Positions 13,641 through 55,889 of a DNA stretch of 64,000 bases are shown one piece after another; position 1 is the stretch's first letter; the number at the start of each line of letters is the position of its first letter. The DNA comes from Daphnia carinata (Eukaryota). The notes below the pieces were generated by a model. The model had not been told where the DNA came from. It saw only the letters and a list, made by a program, of their open reading frames with translations, and did no database searches. The DNA lies in contig NC_081331.1 in assembly GCF_022539665.2 (NCBI RefSeq), forward strand, positions 12,710,001-12,774,000, read 5' to 3'. A program made the position numbers and the translations under genes.

Positions 13641-15280
<1,640 letters not shown>

Positions 15281-26698: not shown

Positions 26699-27980
26699 TT
26701 AGCCGTAGTAGGATCCTCTATAGCCTCCATGTCCACCAGCGTAGCCGCTATATCCTCCTTGATATCCACCGTATCCACCGCGATAAACCTTGCGTTTCTT
26801 TTCAGCTGCCTCCAGATCCGCTTCTTGGATGGACCTGCCTTTGCGTCCCTTATATCCTTTGTTGCGATGTTCAGCAGTTTGCTGATCTACAGCAACTGGT
26901 TCTTCTACGGCTGAGCGGCCTTTACGTCCCTTGTATCCCTTGTTGCGATGTTCAGCAGTTTCCAGGTCTGCAACAGAGCGGCCTTTACGTCCCTTGTAGC
27001 CTTTGTTGCGGTGCTCAGCGGTTTCTTGGTCTGCAGCAGCAGCTTCCTCTACGACAGAGCGGCCCTTACGCCCCTTGTATCCTTTGTTTCGATGTTCAGC
27101 GGTCTCCTGGTCTACAGCAGTGGCTTCCTCTACGACAGAGCGGCCCTTACGTCCCTTGTAGCCTTTGTTTCTATGTTCAGCGGTTTCCTGGTCTGCAGCG
27201 GTGGCTTCCTCTACGACGGAGCGGCCCTTGCGTCCCTTATAGCCTTTGTTGCGATGCTCAGCGGTTTCCTGGTCTGCAGCAGTGGATTCCTCTACGACAG
27301 AGCGGCCTTTACGTCCCTTGTAGCCTTTGTTTCGATGTTCAGCGGTTTCCTGGTCTACAGCAGTAGCTTCCTCTACGACAGAGCGGCCCTTACGTCCCTT
27401 GTAGCCTTTATTGCGGTGTTCAGCAGTCTCTAGATCTACCAAGGGTTTTTCTTCTCCTAGGGATCGGCCTTTGCGGCCTTTGTAGCCTTTGTTGCGATGT
27501 TCGGCAGTTTCCTGATCAGCAACAGATGCTTCTTCTCCGAGAGAGCGGCCTTTACGCCCCTTGTATCCCTTATGGCGATGTTCAGCAGTTTCCAGATCTG
27601 CGACAGCTGCTTCTTCTTCAGCAGAGCGGCCTTTACGCCCCTTGTATCCCTTTTTACGATGTTCAGCGGCTTCTAGGTCTGTCTCTTCTCCGGGGGAACG
27701 GCCTTTGCGGCCTTTGTATCCCTTGTAGCGATGCTCTGCAGTTTCTAGGTCTGAAACAGCCGTTTTGACCTGCTGCAGCTCCTCTGCAGCAGCCACCAAG
27801 GCCACTAAACACGCTAATGCGATCTAATGGAAGAATATAACGTAAAAGAGCCAATCAGACACAAAGAAATTACAGCCCAAAACACATTGTTAGATATGTG
27901 ATACCATCAAATCAAAAACACATGGCTAATCAACGTATATTAAAACACTAATTAAGTAAAACTCTTACCACGATTCTCAT
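26699..27980 (-). CDS. Multi-peptide precursor gene A: 12 x HRxKGYKGRKGR plus a C-terminal Gly/Tyr peptide
   Basis: Exon 1 27969-27980 (MRIV), exon 2 26699-27823. Signal IALACLVALVAA; acidic spacers ending D(L/Q)(E/Q)(T/A)AE alternate with the cationic repeat. Confidence 0.9.
26830..27760 (-). repeat. Coding tandem repeat, ~81-nt unit, 12 copies
   Basis: Unit encodes spacer + HRNKGYKGRKGR; the central units are nearly identical at the DNA level. Confidence 0.9.
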
Positions 27981-30474
27981 GTCGTTGCTGCTTGCTATTG
28001 TTGCTTGTAGAAGCGAATGGATTTGTTTATGTTTACCAAGTCATCGGCGTCCCCCTTTTATACCTACACCTAGTCACGCCCTTTTACGCACGGTGCTCCT
28101 AGACCAAGCGTTGTTTGCGCAAACAACTTATATAAGATACACAAATTCTTGAAGGACACGTGTTCTGGAACATCCAGTGAGTACCTCCCTATCCCTCTTC
28201 CCTTTTTTCTTGAACGAAACAAACACATTGCGTGAACTTGAATCCCGTCTGATGCCAGAGGCTAAAAGAATTCTCGTTTCCAGTAGAAATACGCCAAAAG
28301 GCAAATGCCCTCGACATGCGAGTGATCCAAAACAAGTGCAACGTATGACAAGAACTGGTTTGCCAATGACTTGCTGAAACTTCAGGAACCTCAATCGTAT
28401 CAACCAGAGACTTCACCGGCAAACTGTCAAGGCTAAACGCTCAGGTGTACCGGGTTTCACGATGAAATGAACGAGTTTGTTCGTAATCATTTGCATTTTT
28501 GGCTTTGTTCATTTGTTTTTTGTTTTGTTTTTTTGTTTTTTTTTGTTTTTGTTTTTGAGGATAAAACTTGAACTGGTTGCAGCAGTTTTAAGTGTTGGTT
28601 TAAAACATGTCGTGTCGTGTTATCCGGTGTATTTGCATGCTTATTGCTCGGGGTTTTACCCGAATGCCACGTTATGTAACACTTCCAAAAGATAGAACAA
28701 AAACAACATCTTGTTTCATTTTTCTTCACAGTGCCTGCGCATGGCTACTAAAGGTAGGAAGCAAAAAGCTGATGCATCGTTACTCAGCATTACTAAGCAA
28801 AAGGAAAACGAAAACGAATGAACCAAAGAAACATTTACATGCGATATGGAAGTATGTTTTTCGGAACTAAAAAATCATTAGAAAAATTTAAAATATTTGT
28901 AATGTTCATCGCTTGGTTGGAAGGACGTCTGTAAAGTAAGCGCACAACCGCAACAGCGAAGAACCGCAGAGCGCACTAAAGTAACATGAAAACATCGTTC
29001 CGGGAAATTGTATTATAGGGACAATAGCACTACCCTTTTCAAAAAAGGCCAAGATGCATCGCCGGGTTCTGGTCATTCGAAATACCACCAATGTTCTCAT
29101 GAAAGACTAATTAATTTTATGGAGCGAGATTTCTTATTTTTTTCATGGATTTTTGTTTTTCTTCGCCTGGACGTATTTTAGTTCTTTTAATTGACTGATA
29201 TGGTTCTCTCTGCCTAACCGCCAGCTTCTGTCAAGGCTCAGCCAAATTCCGGTTTATTATTTTCGTCAGGAAACAGTGGCAACCATTATGGGCATTGCCA
29301 GTGACAGCTTGCAACCAAAATGCCAATAGCCTTCAGATCAAACAGGAAACTTTTATTTGTACCTCATCATTACCGTGTGCCAAATGAAGTAGTTTACGAT
29401 ATGATAAGCAAAACCAACAGTGTGTCCTTCAATAATCTACGTCGCCCAAATGCCCTTTCAGCTGTCTTAATGTCTGAATTGTATTCGAAATTCATATATC
29501 GAACAATAGCTGCGCAAAACTGGGTTCTTTTAAATGAATCGTCGGCGCCTTCTCCGACAGGTTTGTAGTAAGGTTAAAGAGAACAAACAAACAAAAAAAG
29601 AATAATGCCGAAAGGGAAACGAGCAATACAGGTTCAGCTATTGGCTAACTGCTTTTCGTTATTCTTATGCTAGATGGTGCCAACACCAGGTGAGGGCGCA
29701 GTCTTATGCTTACGAGCCAACAGCTACAGGGTGCTATTCTTGTTTTATATAATCACATTTTAGGGATGTAAAAGAAGAAGTACGTAATATAATATGCTCT
29801 TCAAACAACTGACGAAGCCATACGCAAAACACCAACGTCGTCAAATGTATGTGGTATTTGAAGTTTTTAAAAATAAATTTACCATCTGTCCAGGTAGAAT
29901 TTTATGACGTCGAAAAGTTTTATTTGTGCAATTCTTCGGCATTGCTTTCTTGCGCAATATAAAGAAATTTACCGGGTACATGAACTGATAATATCGTGTG
30001 ATCAACCTAATAACTACTCTGCCAGTTTTATGTTCTTCACCTGCCTGATTATACATTTGCAAGCACGATTGCTCAAGGCGGAACGTGACGCATCTACAGA
30101 CTTTGAGACGTCGCCCTGTTACAATTTAAAACTTATGCTTCAGCCATTTAAGAGTCAAATTATACATGCAATGTAGTTTAACATTAGGAAAAGAATTAGC
30201 TCGAGAGGTGTTAGCTATGTGTCTCGCTTTCGGCTCATTTTTATAAGGATGGCGTTAGCTGTTTCCCACAGGTAAGTTAAATTACTATTTGCAAAAATTT
30301 TAGTAGAAATAAACAACTGATCTAAAAATTGCTTTTTGTTTATTGACACAAAAAAAAAGTTGATAACGGAAACATCCGATAAGGCAGAGTATATAAGTGC
30401 CACAGTGCCGGTAACATTTTGATTGACAGTTGTCGTTTAGAAATGGTAAGTTGAATGTTCGTGGAAGATTGTGT

Positions 30475-31129
30475 TTAGCCGTAATAGCGTCCACCGTATG
30501 CACCGTAGTTTCCACTGGGATATGTACCGTAGCTTCTTCCACGATTTCCTCCGTAGTTTCCGCTTGATGCTCCATAATGTACTCCGTAGTTTCCGCTTGA
30601 TGCTCCATAATATCCTCCGTAGTTTCCACTGGATGCCGTACGATATGCTCCGGAACTGGTTCTACGAGTTTCAGCTGTATTCAAGTCTGCAACGGCATCT
30701 TCTTCGACGGAGCGTCCGTATCGGGCTTTATGTCCGCTCTGTCCCCCATATCCTCCATAGCCGCTGTGTCCACTATATCCTCCATAGGCGCTGTGTCCTC
30801 CATATCCGCCACGGCCCCCGTAACCGCTGTATCCACGGTAACCACCGTACGCACCGAATTTGCCCTCAGCAGCATCCAAGTCGGTCATCTGATCAACTAG
30901 TTCAGCCTGGTCTAAGGCTGCAGCTACTGCCAACAAACACGCTAATGCGATCTATAGAAATTGGATCATAATGCTTAGCACTTTTAACTGTTACGTTGCT
31001 CTTCTTTGACATTTAGATTAGCACATCATTTAAATATTGCGTTGATGGGCATTTCACGATTTAATTACAGTTAGAGTGAACCAATTAAACTAAATTAGAA
31101 TAGATTTGCACACTTACCGCGATTTTCAT
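30475..31129 (-). CDS. Gly/Tyr-rich two-peptide precursor gene B
   Basis: Exon 1 31118-31129 (MKIA), exon 2 30475-30951. DLDAAE-peptide-RYGR-SVEEDAVADLNTAE-peptide, with three ASSGNYG repeats. Confidence 0.88.
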
Positions 31130-32383
31130 GGTTCTGACGACTTCTTGTTGGTGCTGAGCAAAATGAGTTGTGGGTATCGATGAAGCATTTTCTTATGTCT
31201 TTTATACCTGTTCATCGTGATGAATCATGCTTCCCTTCAATACACAATGTGTAATGTAGAAAGCTTATAATTTTGTTAATCTGCAAAAACCTTCGAAGTC
31301 GAATTCGTGTACAACGGATGGCATTGCCCATTTTGCCTTTGGTGCGTCCGTTCTTGAATCCTTGACGAAATAGTAGGACAAACGCGCCCATGGCCACGCC
31401 CGTCTTGCATAAAAAGCCCCGCTTGTTTTACAGAATGATCTTGTCCCGCATAAAGAAAATATTTTGTTGAAAATAAACCAATCTACTTAAAACTGACCAA
31501 TCAAATTTTCTGTTACCTTGAATGTTCGCACAAGAACAATTCAATTCTCTTCTTGGTTTGATATTCACTGTCCCCGCTCGATATATCAGTTGTTTCGGGC
31601 TCTCAAACAATAGTCGAAGGTCAACTAAAAAAAGCTATCTGCACGGTCTGATAAGCATCTTGAAAAGATTAAACACAAACGAGGATTGCCATTGAAAACC
31701 CGAATTCAAAGTTATGTTTTAGTTATGAGTTTAGTCTAATTAGAATCAATAAAAAAGAAAAGAAAAAGACGTTGATGCAGATGTGCATCTTATACCATCC
31801 TTAACCGATTAACTATAACAGCCCACAAAAACGAAGTTTTTCAACCGCTTTCGCAGCTAAAGTTGAATTATGCTTACGTAAAAAATTGGATAGAAAAACC
31901 TTAGGGGCTTGAATAGATCAAACAAACATCGATCAAGCAGAAAACTGTCAATCGATCTTTCGTATGGACAGGGATATGCGTAGTCGAATGTTTTTTTTAA
32001 GTCGCTGTTCGCGTCAGAAGGTGACAGTACTTTAGTTGAGCCGTTGGTGTTCACCTTAAACATTTCAGGGATAAGTAAAATGTAACCTACTGTAGATCCT
32101 TGTTTATTTTTCCCTTTCCATCTAGGACAAAATTGAAGAAACATACAGAAAATGAAGATCCCCATTTTTTCTCTAAAGGAATTTGCCCCCGTTTCGATGT
32201 TTTATCTCGCTAATAAGTGTCGACTGAGACCCACATCAGCTGATATGCAGTAGGCAGCCTATCTCACTAGCGATAACCCAAGAGTTAAATATCCAGCTTA
32301 AAGGGCGGCGATAGCTGGTCGTTTCCGTACAGTCACTAAAGTCGTTGAGTTCATGACACGTCTCGTACATCAACGTTAAAAAC

Positions 32384-34598
32384 ATGTTAACCTTTCTGTG
32401 CTCACTGCCCATTTTATGGCAAATCGGATTGCTCATTTCGCTTCTACTTGGTGGCTTTAAAGCCTACCTCTGGTACACGTTGGGTGTTTGTACCAGCACA
32501 AAGAAAATGTCGGGCAAAACGGTCATCATCACTGGAGCCAATACGGGTATCGGCAAAGAGACTGCCATTGATCTTGCAAAACGAGGAGCACGAGTCATTC
32601 TCGCATGTCGAGATCCAAAAAAAGCAGCGATCGCCAAAGGTAAGCCGGCCTTACTTTCAATACCATGGTAACACATCGCACTCGAAATTTTCACTGATTT
32701 TCTAACCGTTGGGGCAGATGATATTATTCAGGAAACCGGTAACAAAAATGTAGTCGTCCGCCACCTTGACTTGGCATCCCTCAAGTCTGTCCGCAAGTTT
32801 GCAGCTGAAATTCTTAAGAGTGAACCTCGTCTGGACATCCTCATCAACAACGCCGGCTGCGCTACAATTGAGAAGAAACTAACTGAAGATGGATTAGAGT
32901 ACCAAATGCAAAGCAATCACTTTGGTCACTTCTTGCTAACCAATCTACTGTTAGGTAAGACTTGTCCGGTAGAAATCGCAAGTTAGTAGGCAAATATTCG
33001 GTGAAAGTAGACTTAAACAGTTGGATCGTATACAATGTGTACATTATTTGATACGTTAATTGAAACTGAAGGATTGATCATCAAAACCGGGACTGCTCGT
33101 ATTATCAACGTTAGCTCTGAAGCCCATAGGATGCCCAATCGCTTGAATTTGGACGATCTGACCTTTGATCGTGACCCAGCTGACAGCAAAATTCTCAGAA
33201 TTTATGGTGTCACGAAGCTTTGCAACATTCTGTTTAGCAAAGAACTGGCAAGAAAGCTCGAACCTTGTGGTGAATGGTTTTCATTACTATTTACGGCTCG
33301 ATGAAAGAGTGTGTGCGTTATTCAACGGTGGAATGGAATGCCAAAGGCAACTGGTTTTCGTATCGAATCAGCATAAAATTGGCGCTTGAGCATGTTACTG
33401 TCAGCACTTCTATTCTTCTTCCTTCTTTTTTCATGTGCCTTGTCCTCCTAGGATTGCTGAAAAAATCAGCCCCTTCCCGCATCATTCACGTTTCTTCCAT
33501 GGCGCACGCTTTTACCAAGACGTTGGACTTGAATAACTTGAATTCGGAACTATCCTATAATACCGGCACAGTGTAGGCTATTAAATTGCCATTTTGTTCT
33601 GCGTGTCGCGAGTTTCTTTTTAATATGCACTATCATTTTTTTGTTAGATATTACTATTCCAAGTTGAGCCAAGTTCTTTGTACTCGACATCTCACACGTC
33701 TCCTTTCCAATTCCGGTAACGGCCAACAGCCAAATTTGCTTAAATCATAGAACAAAGTCAGATTTTCTATCACCCTACTCTACGACATTATGTTCGAAAG
33801 GCGTGACCGTGAACTGTTTACATCCTGGTGCTGTCCAAACTGAAATATTCCGCAACGCTCCTTCATGTAACATCAGCTCATTTAAATTATTGGCGCACCA
33901 ATTTCTATTCGACCTCACACTGTGTTATTCCTTAATTCATTAGGGTTCCAGATGATAGCCGCCATCACTTTTCCTCTTTTCTTCAAGGTTCTTTTCGTTT
34001 TTTTCTTAGTTCGCTTCCGCTTCTTATTTTCATTCCACTGATTGAGTAATTGCGCTTACTTCATTATCATCAAGCAAATGTTTTTAATTTCTAAATTGAT
34101 CGTACTAATTTACGCCTGTATCTCCAGGTAAGAATATAACTGTCAATTCTCTTCATCCGGGAGTCGTACATACCGAATTCGGTCGGTTCCTTCCTTATGA
34201 GGTTTTCAAGAAAATAATGACAGCCATTTCCCCCCTCTTCTCGAAGGTTGAGAGCGACTTATCAAGACACGCTTTTTCATTCTATTTGATTTTCTTAATT
34301 GATTCAATCGGTTGGTAAAACATGTGATTGTAAATCTTATTTTTAGTCGGCTAAAGAAGGAGCGCAGACCACAATTTACTTGGCTGTGGCTGACGAAGTC
34401 GCCAACGTTTCAGGAAAATATTTCTGCGATTGCAAGGTAAATGTTTCTATCGCAATTTGTATTGAAGATCATAACCGATGACTTTCTCGTCAGATCGCTA
34501 AAACCAGCAAATTGGCAAAGGATGCGGGACTAGCCAAAAAATTGTGGGAAGTCAGTGAAACGCTTGTTAAATTGAAGCCAGAAGAGCGACACTACTAA
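32384..34598 (+). CDS. Short-chain dehydrogenase/reductase, retinol dehydrogenase 11-14-like, with duplicated alternative internal exons
   Basis: N-terminal anchor, [44 protein letters not shown], two YxxxK-bearing exon sets, [34 protein letters not shown] at 34596-34598. Confidence 0.92.
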
Positions 34599-35444
34599 TG
34601 ATGGGGAATTAGGCCAAATAATTTTCTGAAATTAATAGCCAATAATACATCAACTGAAACAAATGAAGTCTTTGAGAGTGGTGTATTCTATAGTATTATG
34701 TTTGGATTGCCTACGGAATCAGTCATAAAGCGCTGGTTTGTATGTGAATATCATTCCTCTCGCTCCATCCGGTAGGAGTGACTTGACAGTCTTCTTAACA
34801 TAGACGTTCTTCGAGATACAGACGCTATACTCAAGTGCTAGAAGATAAGATGTGCAAGCCAAAGTCATGGCCACCGCTACAGCCGATAAACAGCATATTT
34901 GTGGTCGGCCTCTATGACCCCCAAGATTATTTATCTTAACCAAAAATTTTCATGTTAACTGTTAACCCACACATAGGGGGCTTAAATTTCTAAGCTTAAA
35001 CTACAAATAAGGGCATGATAAAAAAAAATTACACGCATCAACCAAACCACCACTTCGGGCTTATTATTATTATCGGGCTAAAGAAATAAGCCTCCTAAAT
35101 ACGACAAACTAAACATGATATCCACTCAAAACTAAAAGAAGCATGAACATCGCAATTGTTTTGGTAGGTCATCATACGACAACACAGTTTTCACCTATTT
35201 CAATTTCAAGCCATTTTTTGCTATTGGATCGACTGTAACATCAATATGATAGAAATTTCTTGATAGCGAAGCATGAGACAAATTGTAAAACGCGGTCCAA
35301 TGGACAATTGACACATATTTATTGATTCAAATCATTTTCAACGTGGAGCATACATCAATGGAAGCGTCGTACGAACATAAATTCCCGAATTAGAGTATTA
35401 AGCGAGCAACGAGTTTCAGGTTTCAAACAGAAATTAGTAGAAAG

Positions 35445-36427
35445 TTAACCGTGGTAGTGGCCGTGTCCACCACCGAATCCACCGTGTCCATATCCGCCGT
35501 GATGTCCACCTCCGTAACCGCCATGGTGTCCACCTCCATAGCCTCCGTGGTGATGGTGCCCACCTCCATAGCCTCCGTGATGATGGTGTCCACCTCCATA
35601 CCCACCATAATGGCCACCGCCATATCCATGGTGATGTTGTTCGGCGCCCTCCTGATCGGCAATTTCAACAACTGGCTGAACGACCGCTACGGCTGGCTGG
35701 ATTGCTTCAACAGATCTGCGTTTGCGTCCCCATCCGCCGAATCCATGGCTGTGCCCTCCTCCGTATCCACCATGGTGTCCGCCTCCATATCCACCGTGGT
35801 GTCCGCCTCCATATCCACCGTGATGCCCACCTCCATAGCCCCCGTGGTGATGATGTCCACCTCCATACCCACCATGATGGCCACCACCATATCCATGGTA
35901 ATGTTGTTCGGCGGCTTCCTGGTCGGTAATCTCAACAACTGGTTGGACGACCTCTACTGCTGGCTGGACGACTTCTACTGCTGGCTGAATTGCTTCAAGA
36001 GATCTGCGTTTGCGTCCCCATCCGCCGAATCCATGGCCGTGTCCGCCTCCGTGTCCGCCTCCGTATCCACTGTGGTGGCCGCCATGGTGCCCGCCTCCGT
36101 ATCCACTATGATGGCCGCCATAGTGCCCGCCTCCGCCGTGGTGCCCACCGCCGTATCCGCCGTGATGTCCACCACCGTACCCACCATAATGTTGCTCGGC
36201 AACGTCTTGATCAGCGACGACAGCAACTGGTTGGCTTCCCTCTACTAATGGCTGGTTTTCCTCAACGGCTACGGCTAGCGCCACTAAGCTCGCCAAGACA
36301 ATCTATGTAGATCACGTACATTGAAACAAAAAAGAATGCTCAGTGAATTAAACTAAACTCAATAATAAAAATCCTAATTGTTTGACACTACTTGTTTACA
36401 CAGCTGACAACTTACCACGAGTTTCAT
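35445..36427 (-). CDS. His/Gly-rich three-peptide precursor gene C
   Basis: Exon 1 36416-36427 (MKLV), exon 2 35445-36302. Three units DQxxAE-QH...(GGGHHGGY)n; the first two end GFGGWG-RKRR-S. Confidence 0.9.
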
Positions 36428-38687
36428 GATTGTGCTGTTGTTTTCTTGTTTGTTGCTCTACAGATGATGGAACTTATGAAACTGCTGCTGCTGTGTGTGT
36501 TGGACCAAGTCTTTTATACCGAAAGAAAACCCGCCTTTCATGCGCGTACGTGGTTTCATTCACTGCAAGACAAGTGGGCAAGACCCGTTACGGGTATTCG
36601 TCCAGAAAGTTTAAAGAAAACCTTGGGGCTACACCAAACCTCCGAGTAGATGATCAGCAGAAAAAAAAAATGGGAGAGAAAAACTTCCCTTTATCCGGAT
36701 TAAAGTGGATATTCAAGTACAGAACACACGTGTGTTTAGAGTTTTTCGTTGTAAAAAAAAAACGTGCGTGCTACAAGGAGTCATCGACATGACGCCTGAA
36801 GCGGCCTTCTTTGCCGCGTTCGCATCCTACTCGCTTTCACTTGGTTTTTCCGAACATGTCGTAAGATTGAAACATTCGAGGGACTCAGATGAGTGATAGG
36901 ATTGGCAGCGAAAAGATACCAATAAACCAATTTGAGGAGAAATTTGCCTTGCATAAGTTTGGGTTTTAATTCGCTGAGCAGCACATTGCGAAAAGATGCA
37001 GGGTGGTGGTGCGAAGTGATGTGAATCACTTCAATTGATTACAGCGTGAATATTCGAAATTGATGAAAGCTGATATAAAGAAGGGAAAATCCCCAAACTG
37101 GATTTTCAGGTCGTTGGGTCCAAGCGACCAACAACAATGAGTTATATTTTGATTTCGCAACGTCATCGACACCTTGTGAAAACCCCAGACCGTACAAGTC
37201 ACCGATTTTAGAGTGTTTCTTTTTGTTTTTGAAACTTGATAGTTGAAATTATGCAACCATTAGCATATTAAACTAAAAATATCTCCGTAAAGCTAATAGA
37301 ACATTTATGATACGCGTAATTCACAGCTTTTGTGGATTCTTCAACAACTAACCAAATCAGTTTAACGTTTTAGAATTTTCTAAAACAATTTCAACAACAC
37401 TTTTCAGTCTATTCTCCCACCAGGTGAATAGATAAATCGTGTTCCGCAATGCTGACGACGGTATTAAATCATCCTTTGAAGGCCATAAACCGCTTGTGAA
37501 GAGTGAGCCATTCGTTTTGCAAATCAAAAGTCAGGGTGAATATTGAAAATGCTGTTTTCAAGGGCAAGAAAGGACAATATTGTAACACTCGATGAGTTTA
37601 GCTAAAAATAAAATGCGCCGCATCACGGGCTCTGAATGGTATTGCATGACACAACACGGAAGTCGTGCAGAAGCTCACGATAAAACGTTGACTCAGGTAG
37701 TAAGCTATTTGTCTTCATTTAAGGACCATTGGCGTTTTTATTTAACTCGTCAACCAGAAAAAAAGATAAGGCAAAAGAGCCAGGCAATAGAAAAAAAGAA
37801 AGGTAAAATGAAAAGCAGTTGTTTTTTGGCCTTGAATCCCAAGCTTTTATTCCTGTGATTAATTACGTGCATCTTATAGATAACGAAACAATAGTCTCTT
37901 GTCTAGGCCAAGACACAGCACTTAGACAATACAACACTTTTGCATTTAAATCTCCTTTTTTAATTTGCAGGCAAACAAAAGCCTTTCAATAAAAAATTTT
38001 GGCTAAGACAATTAATAATACTTGCCTCGAAGAATCTGCAGTTCAGCTCCATTTAAATCAACGGCTGTTCCTTGCCTTTTTATTTTATTCTTCATGGCAG
38101 CAATTGTGTTGATGTTTGAAAACAAATGAATTTTCTTTGGTTCACATCAATTCAAACTCAAATCATCAAGGTGGCAATCTCAAGGTTAATGGCATGTGAA
38201 CGAATTCTTTATCGTCGTGAGAAATAAATTTAACGTTGGCTACACAAAAAAGATCAGATCGTCTATTTATGTGCCGAATGATTGCCGCAAACGCCGCCGT
38301 AAACCATTTTCAAAGTGGGTGTGATTTTTAGTGCTGGGCTGCGGTGAATCGATCGGGAAAATGCTGCAGGCGACAATAAAAACCTGAAGAAAGCTAATTG
38401 CTGGATGATTTTGAGACATATTATGCCAAGCCAAGTTTGCTGTTATTGCCTTCCGATATAAAAATAGAGCTTTTGAACCAACTGTTGTTAGATTTTGAAC
38501 AGCACAACGACGTCGTTGATACAACCCAATACTTTATTAAATCAAAATAATTCGTGATAACGATAACAACATGGTTTTACAGCCAACCTAAGATAACGCG
38601 CCATTTCGAAATACCTTCAAATGCTTGATAATAGCAGTTTAGAATAACAAGAACAATAAACATAAATTCGCATGAAGAAGGATTGCC

Positions 38688-39141
38688 TCAGCCATGATGG
38701 CCGAAACTACCATAACCACCATGTCCGCTATGCCCACCATGCCCGCCATGATGTCCACCGTAGTGTCCGCGGCCTCCGTATCCTCCACGTCGATGTTCCG
38801 CAGTTTCTAAGTCAGCGACAACGGCATCGTCTTCAACGGAGCGACGCTTACGACCCCAACCATAGTGTCCATGATATCCGCCCCGATATCCTCCATATCC
38901 GCCACGGTAGCCTCCATAACCGTGTCTGCGATGTTCGGCCACATCAAGATCAGCGGCCTCGACGACAACGTCTGCTTCTTCAACTGCTGCTGCGGCTAGC
39001 GCCATTAAACATACTAATGCGATCTGATGGAAATAACATGCAAACATAATACAAGTCAACGTCAGATAAACAATTCGCAGATTTAATTCTAATTTCTTGA
39101 ATTTGAATGTAGGAAAAATGGAGTCTTACCACGACTTTCAT
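38688..39141 (-). CDS. Gly/His/Arg-rich two-peptide precursor gene D
   Basis: Exon 1 39130-39141 (MKVV), exon 2 38688-39023. DLDVAE-HRRHGYGG...YGWG-RKRR-SVEDDAVVADLETAE-HRRGGY... Confidence 0.9.
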
Positions 39142-40259: not shown

Positions 40260-41004
40260 TTAGCGTCCCCAACCATAACCTCCATAACCTCCATAACCTC
40301 CATAGCCACCGTAAGTAATGGGCCTATACCCATTGTAGCTACCATAACCATCGTAGTTACCGTAACCTCTATTGATACCATAGCCACCGTAACCACCGTA
40401 GGCTACATTATGATGCTCAGCGGTTTCTTGATCTACAACGACGTCGTCTTCAACAGAGCGGCCTTTACGACTGTGTCCATTGTATCCGCTGTATCCTCCA
40501 CGGCCACCATATCCAGCGTATCTTCGGCTTTCGGCTGCGTTAAGATCAGAGACATCCCGGACGATTGGTTCTGCATCCTCTACGATTGGCTGGTCTTCTC
40601 CAATTGAACGGCGTTTTCGGCCCCATCCACCATGTTGGCCGTATCCACTGTGTCCCCCATATCCGCCGTATCCACTATGTCCCCCATGTCCGCCGTATCC
40701 ATTAGGACGTCCTCCGTATCCACCATATCCACTAGGACGTCCACCGTATCCTCTGCTGTGGTGTTCTGCAGCATCCAGGTCTGTTACCTCACCGACTTCA
40801 GGTTTAGCCTTGTCCTCGGCTACGCATAGCGCCAGCAAGCAGGTCAGTACGATCTATAGTTGGATAGTGCAGCACGGAAATGAAATTTAGATTTGTTTAA
40901 GTAGGATATAGGCAAAAATACGTACACTTTGATTCGAAATGAGGTCTAACAGTAATCTTTTTGATATAAGTAAAGTGAGAATTAGATTTTACCACAAGTT
41001 TCAT
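40260..41004 (-). CDS. Gly/Tyr-rich three-peptide precursor gene E
   Basis: Exon 1 40993-41004 (MKLV), exon 2 40260-40853. DLDAAE / WG-RKRR-S / DLNAAE / RKGR-S / DQETAE; ends GYGWGR*. Confidence 0.9.
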
Positions 41005-42166
41005 GGCTGTGAAGTCTTCTAGTGTTGTTCGCTGAGTGAGGGAAGAATTGTTGTGAATGGAACCCTGCCAGCGCTTTTATACGAATCCACCGTCACGGCA
41101 AATGCACCATCCGCTGTTGTTCGTATAAGTTTAGCAAAACAAATAACTAAGTCCTCGAACCAAAAACATGCTAAGGACAAATGCGGTATTCTTCTTTGGC
41201 CCGCCGGATCTCAATGACTCACCACTACCGCAATATCACCCGTAAGTCAATATTGCTGAAGTGTACAAGTAAACGTTAGACGCAAGAAAACCCAATCTAT
41301 TATAAAGCGATCACTCAGACACAGCTCGTCCTGTCATAAAGTTGAAGTGGCTCCATTTTACAGCTGGATAACATTAAAATGTTGTGTTTTTTTATTAGAC
41401 TAATGCCGCGTTTCAGAAAGTTCTTTTGGCAAACTGCGAAATGCGTTGCTATGCACTAAACGCAAAAAAGCACCCAGTACACGAAATAAATGCGTTGAAT
41501 GAACATTCAACAAAGGTAAATGACCGCAAGTAATTGTACGTCCGATGACCAAACGGGAATCCCGCGTTCAAAATTTTTCGTGGGATGAAAGTAACTTTTC
41601 TGAAGCGTTCAACCATGTGCACGAAAAAATAAAAAATAAATAAAATAACGTTTAGCTTTCTGTCCGGATTGCTCCGGTTCTTACAATGCAGTCATCGGCC
41701 GTGAGTTGACTTCCGTGTAAGACATACGTTAAACCTTGAAATGTTTGTCTCTTGATCCGACCAATGGCAACAGACGAGGTTATTCAAGACGTAATTTCTG
41801 TTTTTAATTCGAAGAGAATCAAGATCGATGCTAGCCATTACACTCACGAATCACAGATTTTCAGACTCTTCTTTCGTATCAAGTTTATAGAATGTAAATG
41901 TACGTGATTAATGAATGATTGACATAATTTTTTGAATTTTCCCGAGTTCCAGTGTTCATATTCTATTATTCACTAAGAAAAACATGTGATAATAATGCTG
42001 TAATAAATTTATTAATCATTTCATACAGATTTCTCTTTTTTAAATTGTTATTAGAAGGGTGGAATCTTTGGCTTTTCTATGACGAAAAGCTTTATCCTAG
42101 TTGGAACAAAAATACCATCCACCGACAAAAAATGAACATCACTAATAAAACTTCAAATCATAGTTC

Positions 42167-42928
42167 TTATTTTCGACCATAATAATATCCACCATATCCA
42201 CCTCTGCGCCCAAATACGTCACGATCAGGACCAGTGTAACTATGTCCTCCACGAAACCCAAATCTTCCACGACTAAAGCTACCGTCAAAATCTTTGAGGT
42301 AATACACGCGGACAACGCCAATACTATCAGAATCATTTGAATCGTCAGCATTGCTTTCGTAGGTTCCACGAAAATCTGGATCAGTTTCGGATCTGGTCGG
42401 GGTCCATTAGACGAAATGAATTTCCTTCTATATACTGGAGCTCCAGGCCAAGCCCTGTTGCTGCCACTGCCTATGTCTTAAACCATTCTGTTGAACTAAC
42501 AAAATTCAATATTGATTTAGCAATCTTAAAATTACCATTATTGGCTTCGTTACTGGCAGCAGGGGCGTCTTTATCGGCGATTTGGTAGACGTTATTGTCG
42601 ACCGTGTTGACATCCGCATCAGTCTTTTGAACGATGGGATTAGGTCCGGTACGTTCTACTGGTTTCCACATAAAACAACATCGGTTTTATATTTTGTGTT
42701 AGTTTGCCGGTAAAGGGTTCCCGCATAATATAAATAAAATAAACTCTTATAGTTACCCAATTCGCGAGAAACTTTTGGTTTAATTCCGCCAATACTAGCA
42801 GCTCCCGCCAGTGCCAACAAGCACGCTAGGGCAATCTGGTCAATGATTACACATGGAGCAACAAAATGAATCAGAAATTGTTTAAATCGCTGAGAAAAAT
42901 TCGAATGAAATATTACCAAAACTCTCAT
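42167..42928 (-). CDS. Divergent member F of the precursor family (extra introns)
   Basis: Exon 1 MRVL (42917-42928), IALACLLALAGA signal, TATAAAA at 43017-43023. Further exons inferred at ~42757-42835, ~42536-42658 and a last exon ending RRGGYGGYYYGRK* at 42167. Internal splice pattern uncertain. Confidence 0.6.
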
Positions 42929-43915: not shown

Positions 43916-44464
43916 TTAGCCGCGGTGGCCGCCGTATCCACTATAACCTCCGTGTCCGCCATAACTTCCGTATCCACCATAACCTCCGTGTCCACCATAA
44001 CTTCCGTGTCCGCCGTAGCTTCCACGTCCTCCATAGCCCCAACCTCCACGACGATGTTCAGCGGCTTCTAAGTCAGTAGCAAGGGCGTCGTCTTCAACCG
44101 AACGACGTTTACGGCCCCATCCGTGTCCACCATATCCTCCGTAACCACCTCGATGTCCTCCGCCATACCCTCCGTATCCCCCTCGATATCCTCCGCCATA
44201 ACCTCCGTATCCACTAGGCCGGCCTCCGTAGTATCCGCTTCTGTGGTGTTCGGCAGCGTCTAGATCAGCTACCTGGACGACTACATCAGCCTCATCAACG
44301 GCGGCGGCTAGTGCCATTAGGCACGCTAATGCGATCTAATTTAATTGGTTCACACAATAGCTTTATTAAATTGAAAGTCCTTTCACTATCTTCAGAAAAT
44401 TATCTTAAACTACATATAATCACTATTCAAATGAAAAGAAATTATTTCTTACCACGACTTTCAT
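43916..44464 (-). CDS. Gly/Tyr-rich two-peptide precursor gene G
   Basis: Exon 1 44453-44464 (MKVV), exon 2 43916-44335. DLDAAE...HGWG-RKRR-SVEDDALATDLEAAE-HRRGGWGY... Confidence 0.9.
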
Positions 44465-45719: not shown

Positions 45720-46242
45720 TTAGCCATGATAACCACCATATCCGCCATACCGTCTATATCCACCATAACCTCCGTATCCACCATAACTTCCGTATCCGCC
45801 GTAGCCTCCGTATCCGCCGTAGCCTCCACGACCTCCATAACCCCAACCTCCACGGTAATGTTCAGCGGTGTCCAAGTCGGCCGCCAGCACTTCGTCTTCA
45901 ACCGAGCGACGTTTACGGCCCCATCCGTATCCTCTGTGTCCACCGTACCCACCGTATCCTCCGTGATATCCGCCACCGTATCCTCCGTATCCTCCGTACC
46001 GTCCGGGACGTCCTCCGTAGTATCCACCACGGTGTGCGGCAACATCGAGGTCAGCTACTTCGACTGCTACGTCCGTCTCATCAACGGCAGCGGCTAGTGC
46101 CATTAGGCAGGCAAATGCGATCTAGTTTGGTTGATTGAAAATGAAGATTCAAATTCGATTCAGAATGTACTATAGCAATGAATTGATATCATTTAACGTC
46201 ACTATTTAAATGAGGAAAGTAATATCTTACCACAACTTTCAT
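45720..46242 (-). CDS. Gly/Tyr-rich two-peptide precursor gene H
   Basis: Exon 1 46231-46242 (MKVV), exon 2 45720-46121. Close paralog of G; YGWG-RKRR-SVEDEVLAADLDTAE-HYRGGWGY(GGY)n. Confidence 0.9.
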
Positions 46243-47675: not shown

Positions 47676-48559
47676 TTAACGTCCCCATTGATTATGTCCT
47701 CCATATGAGCCATAATTGTTGGATGATTGCCCACCATAGCCAGGATAGCTGTTATAGCCACCACCATAGCCGCCATTATTTCCATAGCCATTATTTCCAT
47801 AGCCATTATTTCCATAGCCATTATTTCCATAGCCATTATTTCCATAGCCATTATTTCCATAGCCACCTGAATTTCCATAGCCACCATAGCTTCCGTAACC
47901 TTGAGCGTGATGCTCAGCAGCTTCCAAGTCAATGACGTCGTCGTCTTCGAGGGATCGGCGTTTGCGGCCAAATGCATGTCCACCGTGGCCACCACTGTGT
48001 CCACCGCGATGTCCTCCTGCGTTTCCATGCCGATGTCCTCCTCCTTGTCCAGCGTAATGACCACCGGTTCTTCTGCTCTCGGCAACATCAATGTCGACGA
48101 CATCCTGAACAAACGGCTGAACGCTCAGAACATTAGGCAGATTTTCCTTAACCGATCGGTGGCCTCGTCCGCCGGAGTATGCAGGTCCGTTAGAGTATGG
48201 ACGTTGGGCGTTAAGGTGTGCACTGTGTCCACCCCGATTTCCACCATAATTGCCAGCCTGTTGTCCACCATAACCGGGATTTCTAGACGCATGATGTTCG
48301 GCGACATCCAAATCAGCAATGTGTTCAACTTGTTCGATCCCTTGAGCTGTTGCGAATAGCGCCAGCAAACAAGTTAATGCGATCTAATCAGATCATATTA
48401 AAACGAATATGTAGGAATATGTTATTTCTTTGGACAACATAATAAAACTGATGAACTCCATATCCAACATGGGAAACGATTCACGCTTAAGAATTTGCCA
48501 TGTCAGAGGTTTGTTTTAAACTGATAGTTAGATAGTTTCGATCTTACGGCAATTTTCAT
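47676..48559 (-). CDS. Gly/Asn/Tyr/His-rich three-peptide precursor gene I
   Basis: Exon 1 48548-48559 (MKIA), exon 2 47676-48383. DLDVAE / RGHR-S / DIDVAE / FG-RKRR-S / DLEAAE; (GYGNN)x5 repeat; ends QWGR*. Confidence 0.9.
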
Positions 48560-49865: not shown

Positions 49866-50417
49866 TTAACCGGAGTACCCAAAGACACGGTGGCCTCCAT
49901 TACTACCATAGCCCCAACCTCCGTATCCGCTGCGATAGTCACCATAGCCATAGCTTTTGGTATTTCCGTAGCCATTGCTTTTGGTACTTCCATAGCTTCC
50001 ATATCCTCCGGTACTTCCATAGCTTCCATAGCCTCCGGTACTTCCATAGCCTCCCCAACCTCCAGTGCTTCCATAGCCTCCATAGCTTCGACGCTGATGT
50101 TCCGCAGCCTCCAAATCAGAGGCAAGCGCTCCGTCTTCGACTGAACGGCGTTGACGGCCCCATCCGTATGTTCCACGATATGCGCTACCATATGGTCTAT
50201 ATCCACTGGGGTATCCTCCATGGTGCCAAACTCGCCTGGATTCGGCAACATCCAAATCAGATGCCTCTACTACTGCGTCCGTCTCAACGGCGGCGGCAAG
50301 CGCCATAAGGCATGCAAGTACGATCTGGTTTAATCAATCGAATTATAGTAAGCATATAAGTAAACTTATGAGAGCTAAAATAATTATTTTAAATTAAAAG
50401 CTTACCACGACTTTCAT
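49866..50417 (-). CDS. Gly/Tyr-rich two-peptide precursor gene J (recent tandem quartet, copy 1)
   Basis: Exon 1 50406-50417 (MKVV), exon 2 49866-50324. DLDVAE...YGWG-RQRR-SVEDGALASDLEAAE-HQRRSY... Confidence 0.9.
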
Positions 50418-51540
50418 TGTTGCAACGATTTGTAGAGTTAACTCGAGAGCTGAAGAACTTATGTCGATGTAGCCCAAATCCATGCCATTTTATACTAAAT
50501 AATCATCATGGCTTTTGCTTCTGTCCTCTTTTTGAATATATACACCCATCGATGGTTGCTGTAAAAAGCCACAAAACCTTGAACGACGATCTGGAGGACG
50601 AACAAAAAAAGACACCACCCCTAACCTTCCCCGTTTAATTTCTGGATCAGACCTTACTTTAGTAAATGAAATAAAAGAATTGTTTTTTTCTGTGACGACA
50701 AAATGATGATGATGATGAAGAATAAGGGTATATCCCTTATATGGTTGGCACTTTCTTATCAAATATGTTATTTGAAACGCGTAGTGATCCACATTGCACA
50801 CGCAAAACAGAGAACGGATGCCGTTTCAAACCTATCCGTATTAGCCTTATTTGTCACACTGGACGCATTTAAGGTCCTTTGCTACAATATTTGTTTATGG
50901 AAATATTTATCCTGCAACTGCCCAGGATCGAACTGAGAACCTGTTGCGTGGGAAACAACCGTGAAAACCATTATACTACAGAAGCTTATAAACAGATTTG
51001 AACTCTATCAACTATATCCTACTTCTACACTTTAATTACCTAAATTAAAAGCAAACTGCGGTGGCACATAAAAGAAAAACACATTATCAAAATGAAAACA
51101 CCTAAGCGACGCATATGTGTTGATATTCCAAATGTACCATAAAAACGATTCGTCGAATGCTCTATGAAAGATGCGCATGAATTTCCTATTGGATGTGATC
51201 GATGCACTTTTGTTACAAGAATTTCTTTGGTATATCATGCAAAACGAAGCCATCGCAATCTCCAGTTCAACAGACTGTTATGCGAAACCGAGACCAATTC
51301 GCTTCTTCTTAGACATGCCACGTCGGTACACATATGAAACAAGAAAACCGAATCTTCAAATGCAAACGATTTATTGAATTTTAAAACGAAAGGTTACAGC
51401 GTACCAATTTTCATGGTCATTGGAATGATTTTGAAACAGACCATTTAAACAAAAGTGACGTGGAATGAAAAGATTAAAACAAACGGTAACAATCATGCAG
51501 ACGTGCACAGGTATTTCGAGAAATCGATTTTGTCTTTCTT

Positions 51541-52127
51541 TTAACCGGAGTACCCAAAGCCACGGTGACCTCCATAACTACCATAGCCCCAACTTCCGTA
51601 TCCGCTGGGGTAGCCACCATAGCCATAGCTTTTGGTATTTCCATAGCCATAGCTTTTGGTATTTCCATAGCCATATCTTTGGGTACTTCCATAGCCTCCA
51701 TATCCTCCGGTACTTCCATAGCCTCCATATACTCCGGTCCTTCCATAGCCTCCATAGCTTCGACGTTGATGTTCCGCAGCCTCCAAATCAGAGGCAAGCG
51801 CTCCGTCTTCAACTGAACGACGTTGGCGGCCCCATCCGTATGTTCCGCGATATCCGCCACCATATGGGTTATATCCACTGCGGTATCCTCCATAGTACCA
51901 ACCGCGCCTGGATTCGGCAGCATCCAAATCAGATACCTCTGCTACCGCGTCCGTTTCAACGGCGGCGGCAAGCGCCATTAGGCATGCAAGTACGATCTGG
52001 TTTAATCAATCGAATTATAGTAAGCATATACTGTAAGTAAATTTATGAGAGCTAAAATAATTATTTTAAATGAAAAGCGCTACTTTTATCTTAGAAAAGA
52101 AATCAAAAATCTTACCACGACTTTCAT
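51541..52127 (-). CDS. Precursor gene K (quartet copy 2)
   Basis: Exon 1 52116-52127, exon 2 51541-51996. Near-identical to J, L and M. Confidence 0.9.
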
Positions 52128-52559
52128 TGTTGCAACGTTTTGAAGAGACAACTCGAGAGCTGAAGAACTGATGTCGATGGAGCCCAAATCCATGCCATTT
52201 TATACTAAATCATCATCACGGCTTTTGTTTCTGTTCTCTTTCTGAACATCTACACCGATCGAGATGGTTGCTGTAAAAGCCACAAAACCTTGAACGGCGA
52301 TCTGGAGGACGAACAACCAAAGACACCACCCCTAACCTTGCCCTTTTAATTTCTGCACCATACCTTACTTTAGTAAACGAATAAAAAAATTGCTTTTTCT
52401 TTGACGACTTTGGCAAAATAATGATGATGATGAAGAATAAGGGTATATCCCTTATATGGTTGGCACTTTCTTATCAAACATGTTTATTTCATACGCGTAG
52501 TGCTCCACGGTGACACGCAAAACAGAGAACGGATTGCTCATTAAACTTTCCCCGTTACC

Positions 52560-53030
52560 GACTCACCGTCACACCCACGCGAAGAATCTCTTATCTTATA
52601 GAGAGCTGTTTAAACAGTACGAGTATCCAAAACCTTGAAGCATAAATGAAGAAAAACGGGGAAGCCCCTCTGCTTCCACGGTCGTTCCCCAATCCTCTTT
52701 AGTGACACACTTGAATATGAAGGTGATCGTGAAGGAAAGACTGCCAATGAATAAAACAAGTTGTTCTTCTCGCTCCTCTTCAAAAACGTGTGTTCCCATG
52801 AAATCATGCATGTTAAAGGCTAAAATACAACGCCTCAAAATTTCCCAACAGTTTGATATGCTGCAAGAATCCAACAGGAAAAGGATATGTGATTGATGAA
52901 ATCTAGAAAATGTTCTTCCAACTTTATTCGTGCTCGAAGGTTAAATTCATTGCAGCTTATAAGTACTCTGGGAAACGTTCATAAGCAAGTGGTTAATATT
53001 GCGCCGGAATTGGCCAATTTGCCCACTATA
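52560..53030 (-). pseudogene. Duplicated 3' fragment (last ~10 codons plus downstream sequence) of the carbonyl reductase gene
   Basis: Highly similar to 56305-56775. Minus strand reads WANWPIPAQY* versus WVNGLLPAQY* at the real gene end. Confidence 0.75.
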
Positions 53031-53523
53031 CATGTTGAGAGACTTATTCCAACTCTGCCCACCATATCCTACTTCAACAGTTTAACTACATAGATCAAAA
53101 GCAAGCTGCGGTGGCACATAAGAAAAACACGTTATCATAAAAAAAAATGCCTAAACGACGCATTTGTGCTTATGTTCCAAATATACCATAGAAACGAGTC
53201 GTCGAATGCTCTATGAAAGATGCGCATGAATTTCCAATTGGAGGTGTTCGATGCACTTATGTTTACAAGCATTTCATTGGCAAATCATGCAAAACGAAGC
53301 CACCGCAATTTCCAGTTTAACAGACGGTTATACGAAATCGAGACCAATTCGCTGCGTCTTAGATATGCCACGTCCGTACACATAAGCAAAAAGAAAATCG
53401 AATCTTAAAAATGCAAACCCTTTATTGAATTTTAAAACGAAGGGTTACAGCGTGCCAATTTTACCAAACAGTAACAATCATGCAGACATGCACAGATATT
53501 TCGAGAAACAATTTTTTTTTCTT

Positions 53524-54123
53524 TTAACCGGAGTACCCAAATCCACGGTGGCCTCCATAACTACCATAGCCCCAACCTCCGTATCCGCTGCGATAGCCAT
53601 CATAGCCATAGCTTTTGGTATTTCCATAGTCATAGCTTTTGGTATTTCCATAGCCATAGCTTTTGGTATTTCCGTAGCCATTGCTTTTGGTACTTCCATA
53701 GCCTCCATATCCTCCGGTACTTCCATAGCCTCCATATACTCCGGTCCTTCCATAGCCTCCATAACCTCCGGTACTTCCATAGCCTCCATATGTTCGACGC
53801 TGATGTTCCGCAGCTTCCAAATCAGCAGCAAGCGCTCCATCTTCAACTGAACGACGTTGGCGGCCCCATCCGTATGTTCCACGATATCCGCCACCATATG
53901 GGTTATATCCACTGCGGTATCCTCCATAGTACCCACCGCGCCTGTATTCGGCAACATCCAAATCAGAGGCCTCTACTACTGCGTCCGTCTCAACGGCGGC
54001 GGCAAACGCCATTAGGCATGCAAGTACGATCTGATTTAATCAATCGAATTATAGTAAACATAAAAGTAAACTTATGAGAGCTAAAATAATTATTTTAAAT
54101 TAAAAGCTTACCACGACTTTCAT
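53524..54123 (-). CDS. Precursor gene L (quartet copy 3)
   Basis: Exon 1 54112-54123, exon 2 53524-54030. Confidence 0.9.
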
Positions 54124-55251
54124 TGTTACAACGATTTGAAGAGTTAACTCGAGAGCTGAAGAACTGATGTCGATGGAGCACAATTCCATGCCATTTTATA
54201 CTAAATCATCATCAGGGCTTTTGTTTCTGTCCTCCTTCTGAATATCTACACCCGCCGATGATTGCTGTAAAAAGCCACAAAACCTTGAACGACGATATGG
54301 AGGACAAACAAAAAAAGACACCTACCCTAACCTTCCCCGTTTAATATCAGGATCAGAGCTTACTTTAGTACATGAAATAAAAGTATTGTTTTTTTCTGTG
54401 ACGACTTTGACAAAATGATGATGATGAAGAATAAGGGTGTATCCCTTATATGGTTGGCACTTTCTTATCAGACATGTTATTTCAAACGCGTAGTGATCCA
54501 CGTTGCACACGCAAAACAGAGAACGGATTCCTTTGCAAACCTTATTCGTATTAACCGTATCTGTCACACTGGCCGCATTTACGGTCCTTTAGTTCAATAT
54601 TTACTTATGGAACTACCTTTCCTGCATCTGCCCAGGATCGTACTGAGAACCTGTTGCGTGTGAAACAACCGTGAAAACCATTATACTACAGATGCTTATA
54701 AAATGATTTGAACTCTACCAACCATATCCTACTTCTACACTTTAACTACCTTCATGAAAAGCAAACTGTGGTGGCCCATAAAGAAAAACACATTATCATG
54801 ATGAAAACACCTAAACGACGCATATGTGTTTATGTTCCAAATTTACCATAAAAACGAGTCGTCAAATGCTCTGTGAAAGATGCGCATGAATTTCCAATTG
54901 GAGGTGATGGATGCACTTATGTTTACAAGCATTTCTTTGGCAAGTCATGCAAAACGAAGCCTTTGTAATCTCCAGTTCAACAGACTGTTGTGCGAAACCG
55001 AGACCAATTCGCTTCGTCTTAGGCATGCCACTTCCGTACACATAAGCAACAAGAAAACCGAATCTTAAAAATGCAAACGTTTTATTGAATTTTAAAACGA
55101 AAGGTTACAGCGTACCAATTTTCATGGTCATTGGGATAATTTTGAAACATACCACTTAAACAAAAGTAATGTGGAAAGAAAAGACTAAAACAAACAGTAA
55201 CAGTCATGCAGACATGGACAGATATTTCGAAAAATTGATTTTTTCTTTCCT

Positions 55252-55889
55252 TTAAACGGAGTACCCAAAGGCACGGTGACCTCCATAACTACCATAGCCC
55301 CAACTTCCGTATCCGCTGGGATAGCCACCATAGCCATAGCTTTTGGTATTTCCATAGCCATAGCTTTTGGTATTTCCATAGCCATAGCTTTTGGTACTTC
55401 CATAGCCTCCATATCCTCCGGTACTTCCATAGCCTCCATATCCTCCGGTCCTTCCATAGCCTCCATAGCCTCTGGTGTTTCCATAGCCTCCATAACCTCC
55501 GGTACTTCCATAGCCTCCATAGCTTCGACTCTGATGTTCCGCAGCCTCCAAATCAGAGGCAAGCGCTCCGTCTTCAACTGAACGACGGTGGCGGCCCCAT
55601 CTGTATGTTCCGCGATATTCGCCACCATATGGTCCATATCCCTTGCGGTATGTTCCATAGTACCCACTGCGCCTGTTGTATTCGGCAACATCCAAATCAG
55701 ATGCCTCTACTACTGCGTCCGTCTCAACGGCGGCGGCAAGCGCCATTAGGCATGCAAGTACGATCTGGTTCAATCAATCGAATTATAGTAAGCATATAAG
55801 TAAACTTATGAGTGCTAAAATAATTATTTAAATTAAAAGCGCTACTTTTGTCTTAGAAAAGGAATAAAAAGTCTTACCACGACTTTCAT
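55252..55889 (-). CDS. Precursor gene M (quartet copy 4)
   Basis: Exon 1 55878-55889, exon 2 55252-55764; RWG-RHRR-S cleavage site. Confidence 0.9.

Follow-up and report, generated by a model that had tools for sequence, protein, structure and literature searches.

A minus-strand array of peptide precursor genes

The window analyzed here is a stretch of 64,000 nucleotides from the genome of Daphnia carinata (contig NC_081331.1, positions 12,710,001 to 12,774,000; all coordinates below are those of the window). Between 26,699 and 55,889 it contains twelve intact two-exon genes, all on the minus strand and all built alike: 75-91 bases upstream lies a TATA motif, the first exon has 12 bases, the intron has 81-166 bases, and the second exon contains the remainder. 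The exon structures are based on the sequence and on the match to P0008 (ctenidin-1-like, Daphnia carinata), whose 239 residues are identical to the precursor encoded at 47,676-48,559. Each precursor begins with a hydrophobic leader, recognized by eye, and continues with 2, 3, or 13 units of an acidic spacer and a Gly/Tyr/His-rich cargo. Nearly every spacer ends in the six-residue motif D-[LQI]-x-x-A-E, which we consider here as a putative cleavage site.

Gene A (26,699-27,980) encodes 378 amino acids in 13 units, with exon 1 at 27,980-27,969 and exon 2 at 27,823-26,699. Its 13 motifs lie at 26,801-27,751, the repeats are mostly spaced by 81 bases, and the cargo consists of a Gly/Tyr tail and twelve near-identical copies of a 12-residue basic unit, each predicted to yield an amidated decapeptide of about 1.24 kDa (before correction for the amide). 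Many copies of one such peptide in a single precursor are an apidaecin-like design. Gene B (30,475-31,129; 162 amino acids, 2 units) carries DLDAAE at 30,865-30,882 and DLNTAE at 30,670-30,687, and gene C (35,445-36,427; 289 amino acids) has three His/Gly-rich units, each with Gln first, and motifs at 36,195-36,212, 35,907-35,924, and 35,640-35,657; its predicted peptides have masses of about 5.6-6.2 kDa, before correction for amide and pyroglutamate. The database protein P0015 (holotricin-3-like, Daphnia carinata) is a shorter model of gene C that lacks about one unit, possibly through a spurious intron drawn through the repeats. Precursors of 115 amino acids (38,688-39,141; 2 units, motifs at 38,934-38,951 and 38,796-38,813), 201 amino acids (40,260-41,004; 3 units, motifs at 40,764-40,781, 40,530-40,547, and 40,416-40,433), and 143 amino acids (43,916-44,464; 2 units, motifs at 44,249-44,266 and 44,057-44,074) follow, together with one of 137 amino acids (45,720-46,242; 2 units, the variant DLDVAA at 46,035-46,052 and then DLDTAE at 45,861-45,878) and the 239-residue precursor already mentioned (3 units, motifs at 48,297-48,314, 48,078-48,095, and 47,913-47,930). 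Four close duplicates at 49,866-55,889, recent near-copies with 2 units each, complete the array: these encode 156 amino acids (49,866-50,417, in sequence equal to P0044; motifs at 50,241-50,258 and 50,100-50,117), 155 amino acids (51,541-52,127; 51,913-51,930 and 51,772-51,789), 172 amino acids (53,524-54,123; 53,947-53,964 and 53,806-53,823), and 174 amino acids (55,252-55,889; 55,681-55,698 and 55,537-55,554).

With RxxR|S sites as unit borders, a criterion that makes no use of the motif, and with the start of each first spacer set by assumption at residue 18, the array contains 38 units, and the spacer ends in D-[LQI]-x-x-A-E in 37 of them. The other is the DLDVAA unit, the sole unit in the window with Ala instead of Glu. 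A six-frame scan of the window finds 39 matches, every one on the minus strand; 37 are located in the twelve genes, and the other two (at 38,059 and 29,474) are non-genic chance matches. A preliminary description of this DNA had reported more than 35 motifs in 27,730-55,700; the number agrees with the genic count, but only 25 fall into that range, and 12 more lie in gene A at 26,801-27,679. Shuffling the bases of the window gives 1.0 matches on average and 6 at most, and shuffling whole precursors leads one to expect 0.017 motifs. Shuffled spacers end in the motif an expected 0.04 times, compared to 37 seen, which rules out a chance origin. The spacers vary from 9 to 32 residues, odd and even, with net charges from -3 to -7, and several contain Pro; the motif terminates them all the same, and its Asp is present in all 38 units. 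At the fixed positions synonymous codons are mixed (Asp is GAT 20 times and GAC 18 times, all four Ala codons are used, and Glu is GAA 29 times and GAG 8 times); because of this mixture the conservation points to selection at the level of the protein.

The residue after the motif is His in 26 units, Ser in 4, Gln in 3, Tyr in 2, and Gly, Thr, and Lys in one each, and 34 of the 38 cargos are free of Asp and Glu. The preliminary description placed the motif at a switch from acidic to basic sequence; this holds for the charge of the spacers and the acid-free cargos, except that the gene C cargos are basic through His alone. Its statements that His, Ser, or Gln mostly follows (33/38) and that Gln starts every gene C cargo (3/3) agree with our counts. 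In precursors of the melittin and apidaecin type, which undergo dipeptidyl trimming, the entire spacer is an even-length run of X-Ala/X-Pro dipeptides. None of the 38 spacers is such a run, as had been noted before: the best has 4 dipeptides out of 7, odd lengths are frequent, and in no unit does such a dipeptide directly follow the motif. We therefore reject dipeptidyl removal of the whole spacer in Daphnia, one of the routes considered earlier. Also rejected is a processing site of the spider PQM type, which is defined by Arg at P1 with Glu within the three preceding residues; here P1 is Glu in 37 of 38 units and Ala in one.

Where the precursors would be cut

We regard it as rather probable that the motif is the recognition site of an endoprotease that cuts after the sixth residue and so frees the N-terminus of each peptide. 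The evidence comes from comparison with relatives outside the window, collected through three homologue searches, the first with the 143-residue precursor as query, and one profile search that contributed the best 120 of its 198 matches. Among the matches listed, three kinds of precursor carry similar cargo. Motif-bearing polyproteins are found in Daphnia magna, D. pulex, D. galeata, and D. sinensis. Motif-bearing precursors with a single unit come from Anopheles species, Sabethes, Sitodiplosis, Homalodisca, and the ostracod Darwinula, and variants of the motif occur in Trichomalopsis and Dendroctonus. The third kind is motif-free and has RxxR directly before the cargo (Orchesella, Scaptodrosophila, Calliphora, Chironomus, two Anopheles species, Trachymyrmex, Anthophora, and several nematodes); a second motif-free form combines similar cargo and the same ending with a spacer that is entirely an X-Ala/X-Pro run. 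Judged from these sequences, the motif is conserved across crustaceans and insects, in an ostracod, water fleas, mosquitoes, a gall midge, and a leafhopper, and the precursors form a large family of predicted amidated Gly/Tyr/His peptides that is unannotated so far. Anopheles has Gly/Tyr precursors with His-starting cargo of both the furin type (P0186, P0212) and the motif type (P0132, P0141, P0153, P0168).

Between ostracod and mosquito the spacers differ in length and in their other residues, but the distance from Asp to Glu stays fixed. This bears on the idea that processive aminopeptidases degrade the spacer from the end made by furin until they stall at the cargo, with the motif as a relic of duplication. 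Four of the window genes are indeed recent near-copies, and the enzyme of cnidarian acidic-residue processing could be an aminopeptidase (PMC9545775). Neither the constant spacing nor the mixed synonymous codons nor the Pro in several spacers fits this idea, to which we give very little credence.

For the position of the cut we analyzed 213 proteins, excluding three that are identical or nearly identical to window genes and those that are cluster members of other listings. They contain 148 sites of the form [DE]-[LQIM]-x-x-A-E in 101 proteins. After removal of 7 sites without Gly/Tyr-rich sequence downstream, 126 unique sites were kept, 53 in single-unit precursors (proteins without internal RxxR-Ser, a class that takes in a few Daphnia-like proteins) and 73 in polyproteins. 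X-Ala/X-Pro dipeptides directly follow the Glu in 34 of the 53 single-unit sites, one dipeptide in 25 cases and two in 9, whereas the neighboring registers have them at 0 (+1) and 1 (-1) of the 53 sites. The residue that follows these dipeptides is Gln at 18 and His at 12 of the 34 sites, and in 24 of 26 cases the offset of the first Gln is even. For the single-unit genes of Anopheles the predicted start would lie after a Thr-Ala dipeptide. The dipeptides differ (SA, TA, AA, NP, RP, and RA) across insect orders and one ostracod, and the weight of the register argument lies in this variety, not in P values. Polyprotein sites have dipeptides in 3 of 73 cases; in the others the cargo comes immediately after the motif, and 11 have Gln at offset 0.

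In motif-free look-alikes the place of the motif is taken by a basic site: 24 sites have RxxR or a dibasic pair at the border between spacer and cargo, followed by Gln (12), His (6), Trp (4), or another residue (2), and 5 of the 24 show dipeptides of the same kind. Because motif and furin-type site precede the same residues in the same register, the motif likely behaves as a site of cleavage immediately past its sixth residue. The N-terminal maturation step proposed in the preliminary description thus gains comparative support, with the cut itself a prediction. In insects, dipeptidyl trimming appears to follow the motif step and not to be an alternative to it.

The same observations weigh on two other explanations. 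The motif might be a sorting, binding, or folding signal, such as a short helix or a receptor ligand, with the spacer retained or lost in some other way. That it occurs in first and internal units alike and tolerates changes at P1 and P2 would suit a signal, and the evidence for cleavage is comparative only. However, a signal gives no reason for in-register dipeptides and Gln (34 of 53 sites as opposed to 0 and 1), nor for a furin-type site at the same place before the same residues, and we consider this explanation, which the preliminary description had offered as its alternative, quite improbable. Conventional convertases could instead do all the cutting at basic residues just past a motif that merely presents the site. 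Arg occurs within three residues past the motif in 29 of 38 window units, a dibasic pair within five residues in 15, and P0021 has both the motif and an RxxR site, with RSGR between its motif and the Gln. On the other hand, RxxR is found within eight residues past the motif in none of the 38 units, 23 have no dibasic pair, the gene C units start without a basic residue, and in the insect Ser-Ala-Gln and Thr-Ala-His types no basic residue precedes the start of the cargo; the convertase explanation would cover no more than 15 of the 38 units and appears far-fetched.

What such an enzyme would read can be judged from junctions located without reference to the motif, each taken as the final acidic residue ahead of a cargo that lacks Asp and Glu (P1 is thus acidic by construction). 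From 95 internal junctions, 82 of them unique, 4 of the dipeptide type were set aside, leaving 78. Of these, 70 have Glu at P1, 62 have Asp at P6 (against a background of 13%), 54 have Leu or Gln at P5, and only 33 have Ala at P2; the strict motif is present in 26 junctions, a broad form in 65, and neither in 13, some of these through a misplaced junction. The P2' residue is Arg at 21 of the 36 unique sites in the window and at 34 of the 78 outside junctions. The preliminary description had suggested a Glu-specific endoprotease reading DLxxAE. An endoprotease is indeed favored, but the definition is too narrow: P2 often is not Ala, and Ala, Asp, or Ser sometimes replaces Glu. Two relatives with a residue other than Glu at P1 keep the dipeptide register. 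On these sequences the general form would be D-[LQ]-x-x-x-E, with a preference for Glu and no strict specificity.

The best-kept residue is Asp, which occurs in every window unit and in the 62 junctions just mentioned. This would also be expected if a protease of the Asp-N type, from the astacin, BMP1/tolloid, or meprin class, cut before the Asp and exopeptidases then removed the six residues and the dipeptides. Astacin prefers an acidic P1', and six residues amount to three dipeptides, so that a cut before Asp followed by dipeptide trimming would likewise be in register. Such a cut leaves the conservation of Glu at P1 and Ala at P2 unexplained, and the position before the Asp takes 12-13 types of residue, Pro among them. 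Moreover, none of the pairs DL, EG, and AE is an X-Ala/X-Pro dipeptide, and nothing would halt a dipeptidyl peptidase of broad specificity at a cargo that starts with His, as 26 of 38 do. We judge this explanation improbable and continue with a cut after the sixth residue.

Several points count against that cut. Besides the low share of Ala at P2, the P1 residue can differ from Glu (as in DLDVAA of the array and in relatives with Ala, Asp, Ser, or Gly). No dipeptide run is found at 19 of the 53 single-unit sites or at 70 of the 73 in polyproteins, and with dipeptides this scarce in polyproteins the register argument extends to Daphnia only through the common motif and the cargos that begin with Gln. 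Because the search profiles include the motif and the sites are interrelated, the counts are not independent and binomial P values are inflated, and homology between motif-type and furin-type precursors is beyond proof on low-complexity sequence. Finally, in a cone-snail precursor with unrelated cargo DLEGAE lies inside the predicted mature peptide (PMC8949452).

Pathway and candidate enzyme

The order seen repeatedly in the sequence (hydrophobic leader, acidic spacer, motif, cargo, and Gly with basic residues) suggests the following pathway. The signal peptide would be removed first. A furin-type convertase would then cut after RxxR, a carboxypeptidase would trim the basic residues, and the exposed Gly would be converted to an amide; trimming exposes Gly in 32 of 38 units, and a C-terminal Gly after trimming is the usual amidation signal. 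Among the C-terminal sites, only 11 of 26 internal cases have the canonical furin form R-X-[KR]-R, and the other 15 are minimal RxxR. In the four close duplicates RQRR or RHRR takes the place of RKRR, a change that would abolish the amidation signal of their first peptide. Meanwhile the acidic spacer would hold the basic, aromatic cargo soluble or inactive, until it is taken off by a protease whose site extends over several positions, with Asp at P6, Leu or Gln at P5, and usually Glu at P1. Where X-Ala/X-Pro dipeptides come next, as in many insects, a dipeptidyl peptidase would trim them, and a leading Gln would cyclize to pyroglutamate.

Acidic residues also delimit neuropeptides in early-branching animals. 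In cnidarian precursors, acidic residues mark the N-terminal processing by an amino- or endopeptidase whose identity is given as unknown, a type of processing described as absent from Bilateria (PMC9545775); acidic sites were confirmed by mass spectrometry in one cnidarian and one ctenophore, and have recently been recognized in bilaterians (PMC9525235). Cnidarian, ctenophore, and placozoan neuropeptides such as Antho-RFamide share with the Daphnia units an acidic residue before the start, which is often Gln, and a C-terminus of Gly and basic residues. Asp or Glu directly before the start, with no basic site, defines the cnidarian type, and at the predicted boundary we find Glu in 37 of 38 units. 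Unlike the cnidarian type, the putative site in Daphnia and insects extends over six residues with Asp at P6 and Leu or Gln at P5, the cargos are long and rich in Gly and Tyr, and the hosts are pancrustaceans. New are the reach of the motif into mosquitoes, gall midge, leafhopper, and ostracod, the dipeptide register, and the furin-type or dibasic sites at the same place in motif-free look-alikes.

A parallel to the replacement by furin-type sites is provided by Baramicin, whose IM22 peptide is cut after GIND by a process given as unknown in Drosophila melanogaster, and after RXRR in other flies (PMC8423362). By analogy, this is the same logic as the exchange of motif and furin-type site here. 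Precursors of the apidaecin and Baramicin type share with ours tandem peptides between RxxR sites and pyroglutamate starts, the latter predicted in our case. They differ in that the Daphnia spacers are not X-Ala/X-Pro runs, and the motif has another sequence and precedes every unit.

A further resemblance concerns the proteoglycan versican, which is cut at Glu441-Ala442 in DPEAAE|ARRG by ADAMTS1, 4, 5, and 9 (PMC8000579; PMC12226136). This site resembles DLEAAE|HRRG in having Asp at P6, Ala at P2, Glu at P1, and Arg at P2'. Glu at P1 with a variable P1' is also typical of the aggrecan sites (PMC8000579), and the window sites show the same combination. In versican, P5 is Pro instead of Leu or Gln, and the ADAMTS substrates are proteoglycans recognized through exosites. 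ADAMTS9, from the branch with reported fly and nematode orthologues, prefers Tyr, Arg, or Leu and not Glu at P1, and its specificity is driven by exosites (PMC12226136), which speaks against such an enzyme. We treat the resemblance as a lead only. An ADAMTS-type metalloprotease may be the best single candidate for the removal of the spacer, though one that we think unlikely to be right. It is likewise doubtful that D-[LQ]-x-x-x-E is the site of a dedicated ADAMTS-type endoprotease that matures peptides from ostracods and water fleas to mosquitoes and is interchangeable with furin in evolution. If it were, arthropod secreted peptides would have a second convertase route with further undiscovered substrates, and the enzyme that processes acidic residues in early-branching animals would become approachable. 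The 14 window frames scanned against Pfam include no protease.

Programs that predict arthropod peptides look for basic cleavage sites. Because they do, peptides freed at the motif would be given a wrong N-terminus or overlooked. The presence of the motif 37 times in one Daphnia array, and in Anopheles, provides a defined substrate in animals in which gene knock-down is possible.

Cargo, annotation, and gene neighborhood

The predicted mature peptides have 10-94 residues, 20-56% Gly, and a net charge of 0 to +7 excluding His. Their composition suggests that they are quite possibly antimicrobial-like, and a cuticle or matrix component is also a real possibility. Gly-rich antimicrobial peptides (armadillidin, ctenidins, acanthoscurrins, and holotricin 3) and the nematode glycine-rich secreted peptides (GRSPs, NLP-31) share with them a Gly-rich, mostly basic, predicted secreted, and amidated character, and the automatic NCBI names of the window genes stem from this likeness. 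The ctenidins contain about 71% Gly (70.6-72.7% in the table of PMC5031766). The ctenidin/acanthoscurrin class is characterized by about 70% Gly, a content that the predicted mature peptides with their 20-56% do not reach; the precursors also differ as polyproteins with acidic spacers. Working criteria for GRSPs are a length up to 200 amino acids, a signal peptide, and more than 17% Gly in the mature part (PMC10506718). Eight of the 12 precursors have 200 or fewer amino acids, Gly reaches at least 20% in all 38 cargos, and a putative signal peptide is recognizable by eye. For GGY repeats, a link to cuticle hardening has been described and an antimicrobial role suggested (PMC11772090). GGY/GYG repeats are shared with shematrin, prisilkin, and the tick GGY glycine-rich proteins, for which the available passages describe neither motif-delimited spacers nor the release of multiple peptides.

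None of the seven window precursors scanned passes any Pfam cut-off; one matches GRP (PF07172) with 20.8 bits, below the curated cut-off of 30 bits, and 6 of 11 outside relatives match the same family at E values up to 1, the best being 5.4e-08. Matches in the ESM Atlas (best 0.75 and 0.75-0.77, arthropod clusters) were under the useful threshold and were left unused, and a sequence search of the PDB gave four weak matches that probably reflect Gly-rich composition. The text of the open-access literature, with figures, supplements, and subscription papers outside the scope of the search, contained no description of motif or family that we could find, and the available parts of PMC8557429, PMC2823692, PMC6857651, and PMC12882449 have nothing on the motif. 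Database names in the family are misleading (holotricin-3-like, TATA-binding protein-associated factor 2N, dynein heavy chain, and FAM98B for P0015, P0032, P0054, and P0043).

Within the array lies a thirteenth, divergent paralogue (42,160-42,928, lower end approximate, minus strand). It has the exon 1/exon 2 start of the family, the motif is absent, and its later frames contain an acidic stretch and a Gly/Tyr-rich tail ending in Tyr-Gly-Arg-Lys-stop; it probably carries extra introns or a frameshift. Elsewhere in the window, a cluster of collagen-like (Gly-X-Y) frames (1,689-15,280, plus strand) and a frame for a chitin-binding cuticle protein (16,772-17,137, plus) lie near the array. Other frames encode a sodium:solute symporter (18,203-20,514, plus), an ankyrin-repeat membrane protein that by inspection is TRP-channel-like (22,595-25,416, plus), and an acetyl-CoA transporter (60,078-60,605, minus). 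Short-chain dehydrogenase frames are located within and beside the array, at 32,357-33,576 (plus) and 57,208-57,810 (minus). The Daphnia galeata model P0025 fuses a short-chain dehydrogenase to units of the family, which suggests the same gene neighborhood in D. galeata and a merged gene model.

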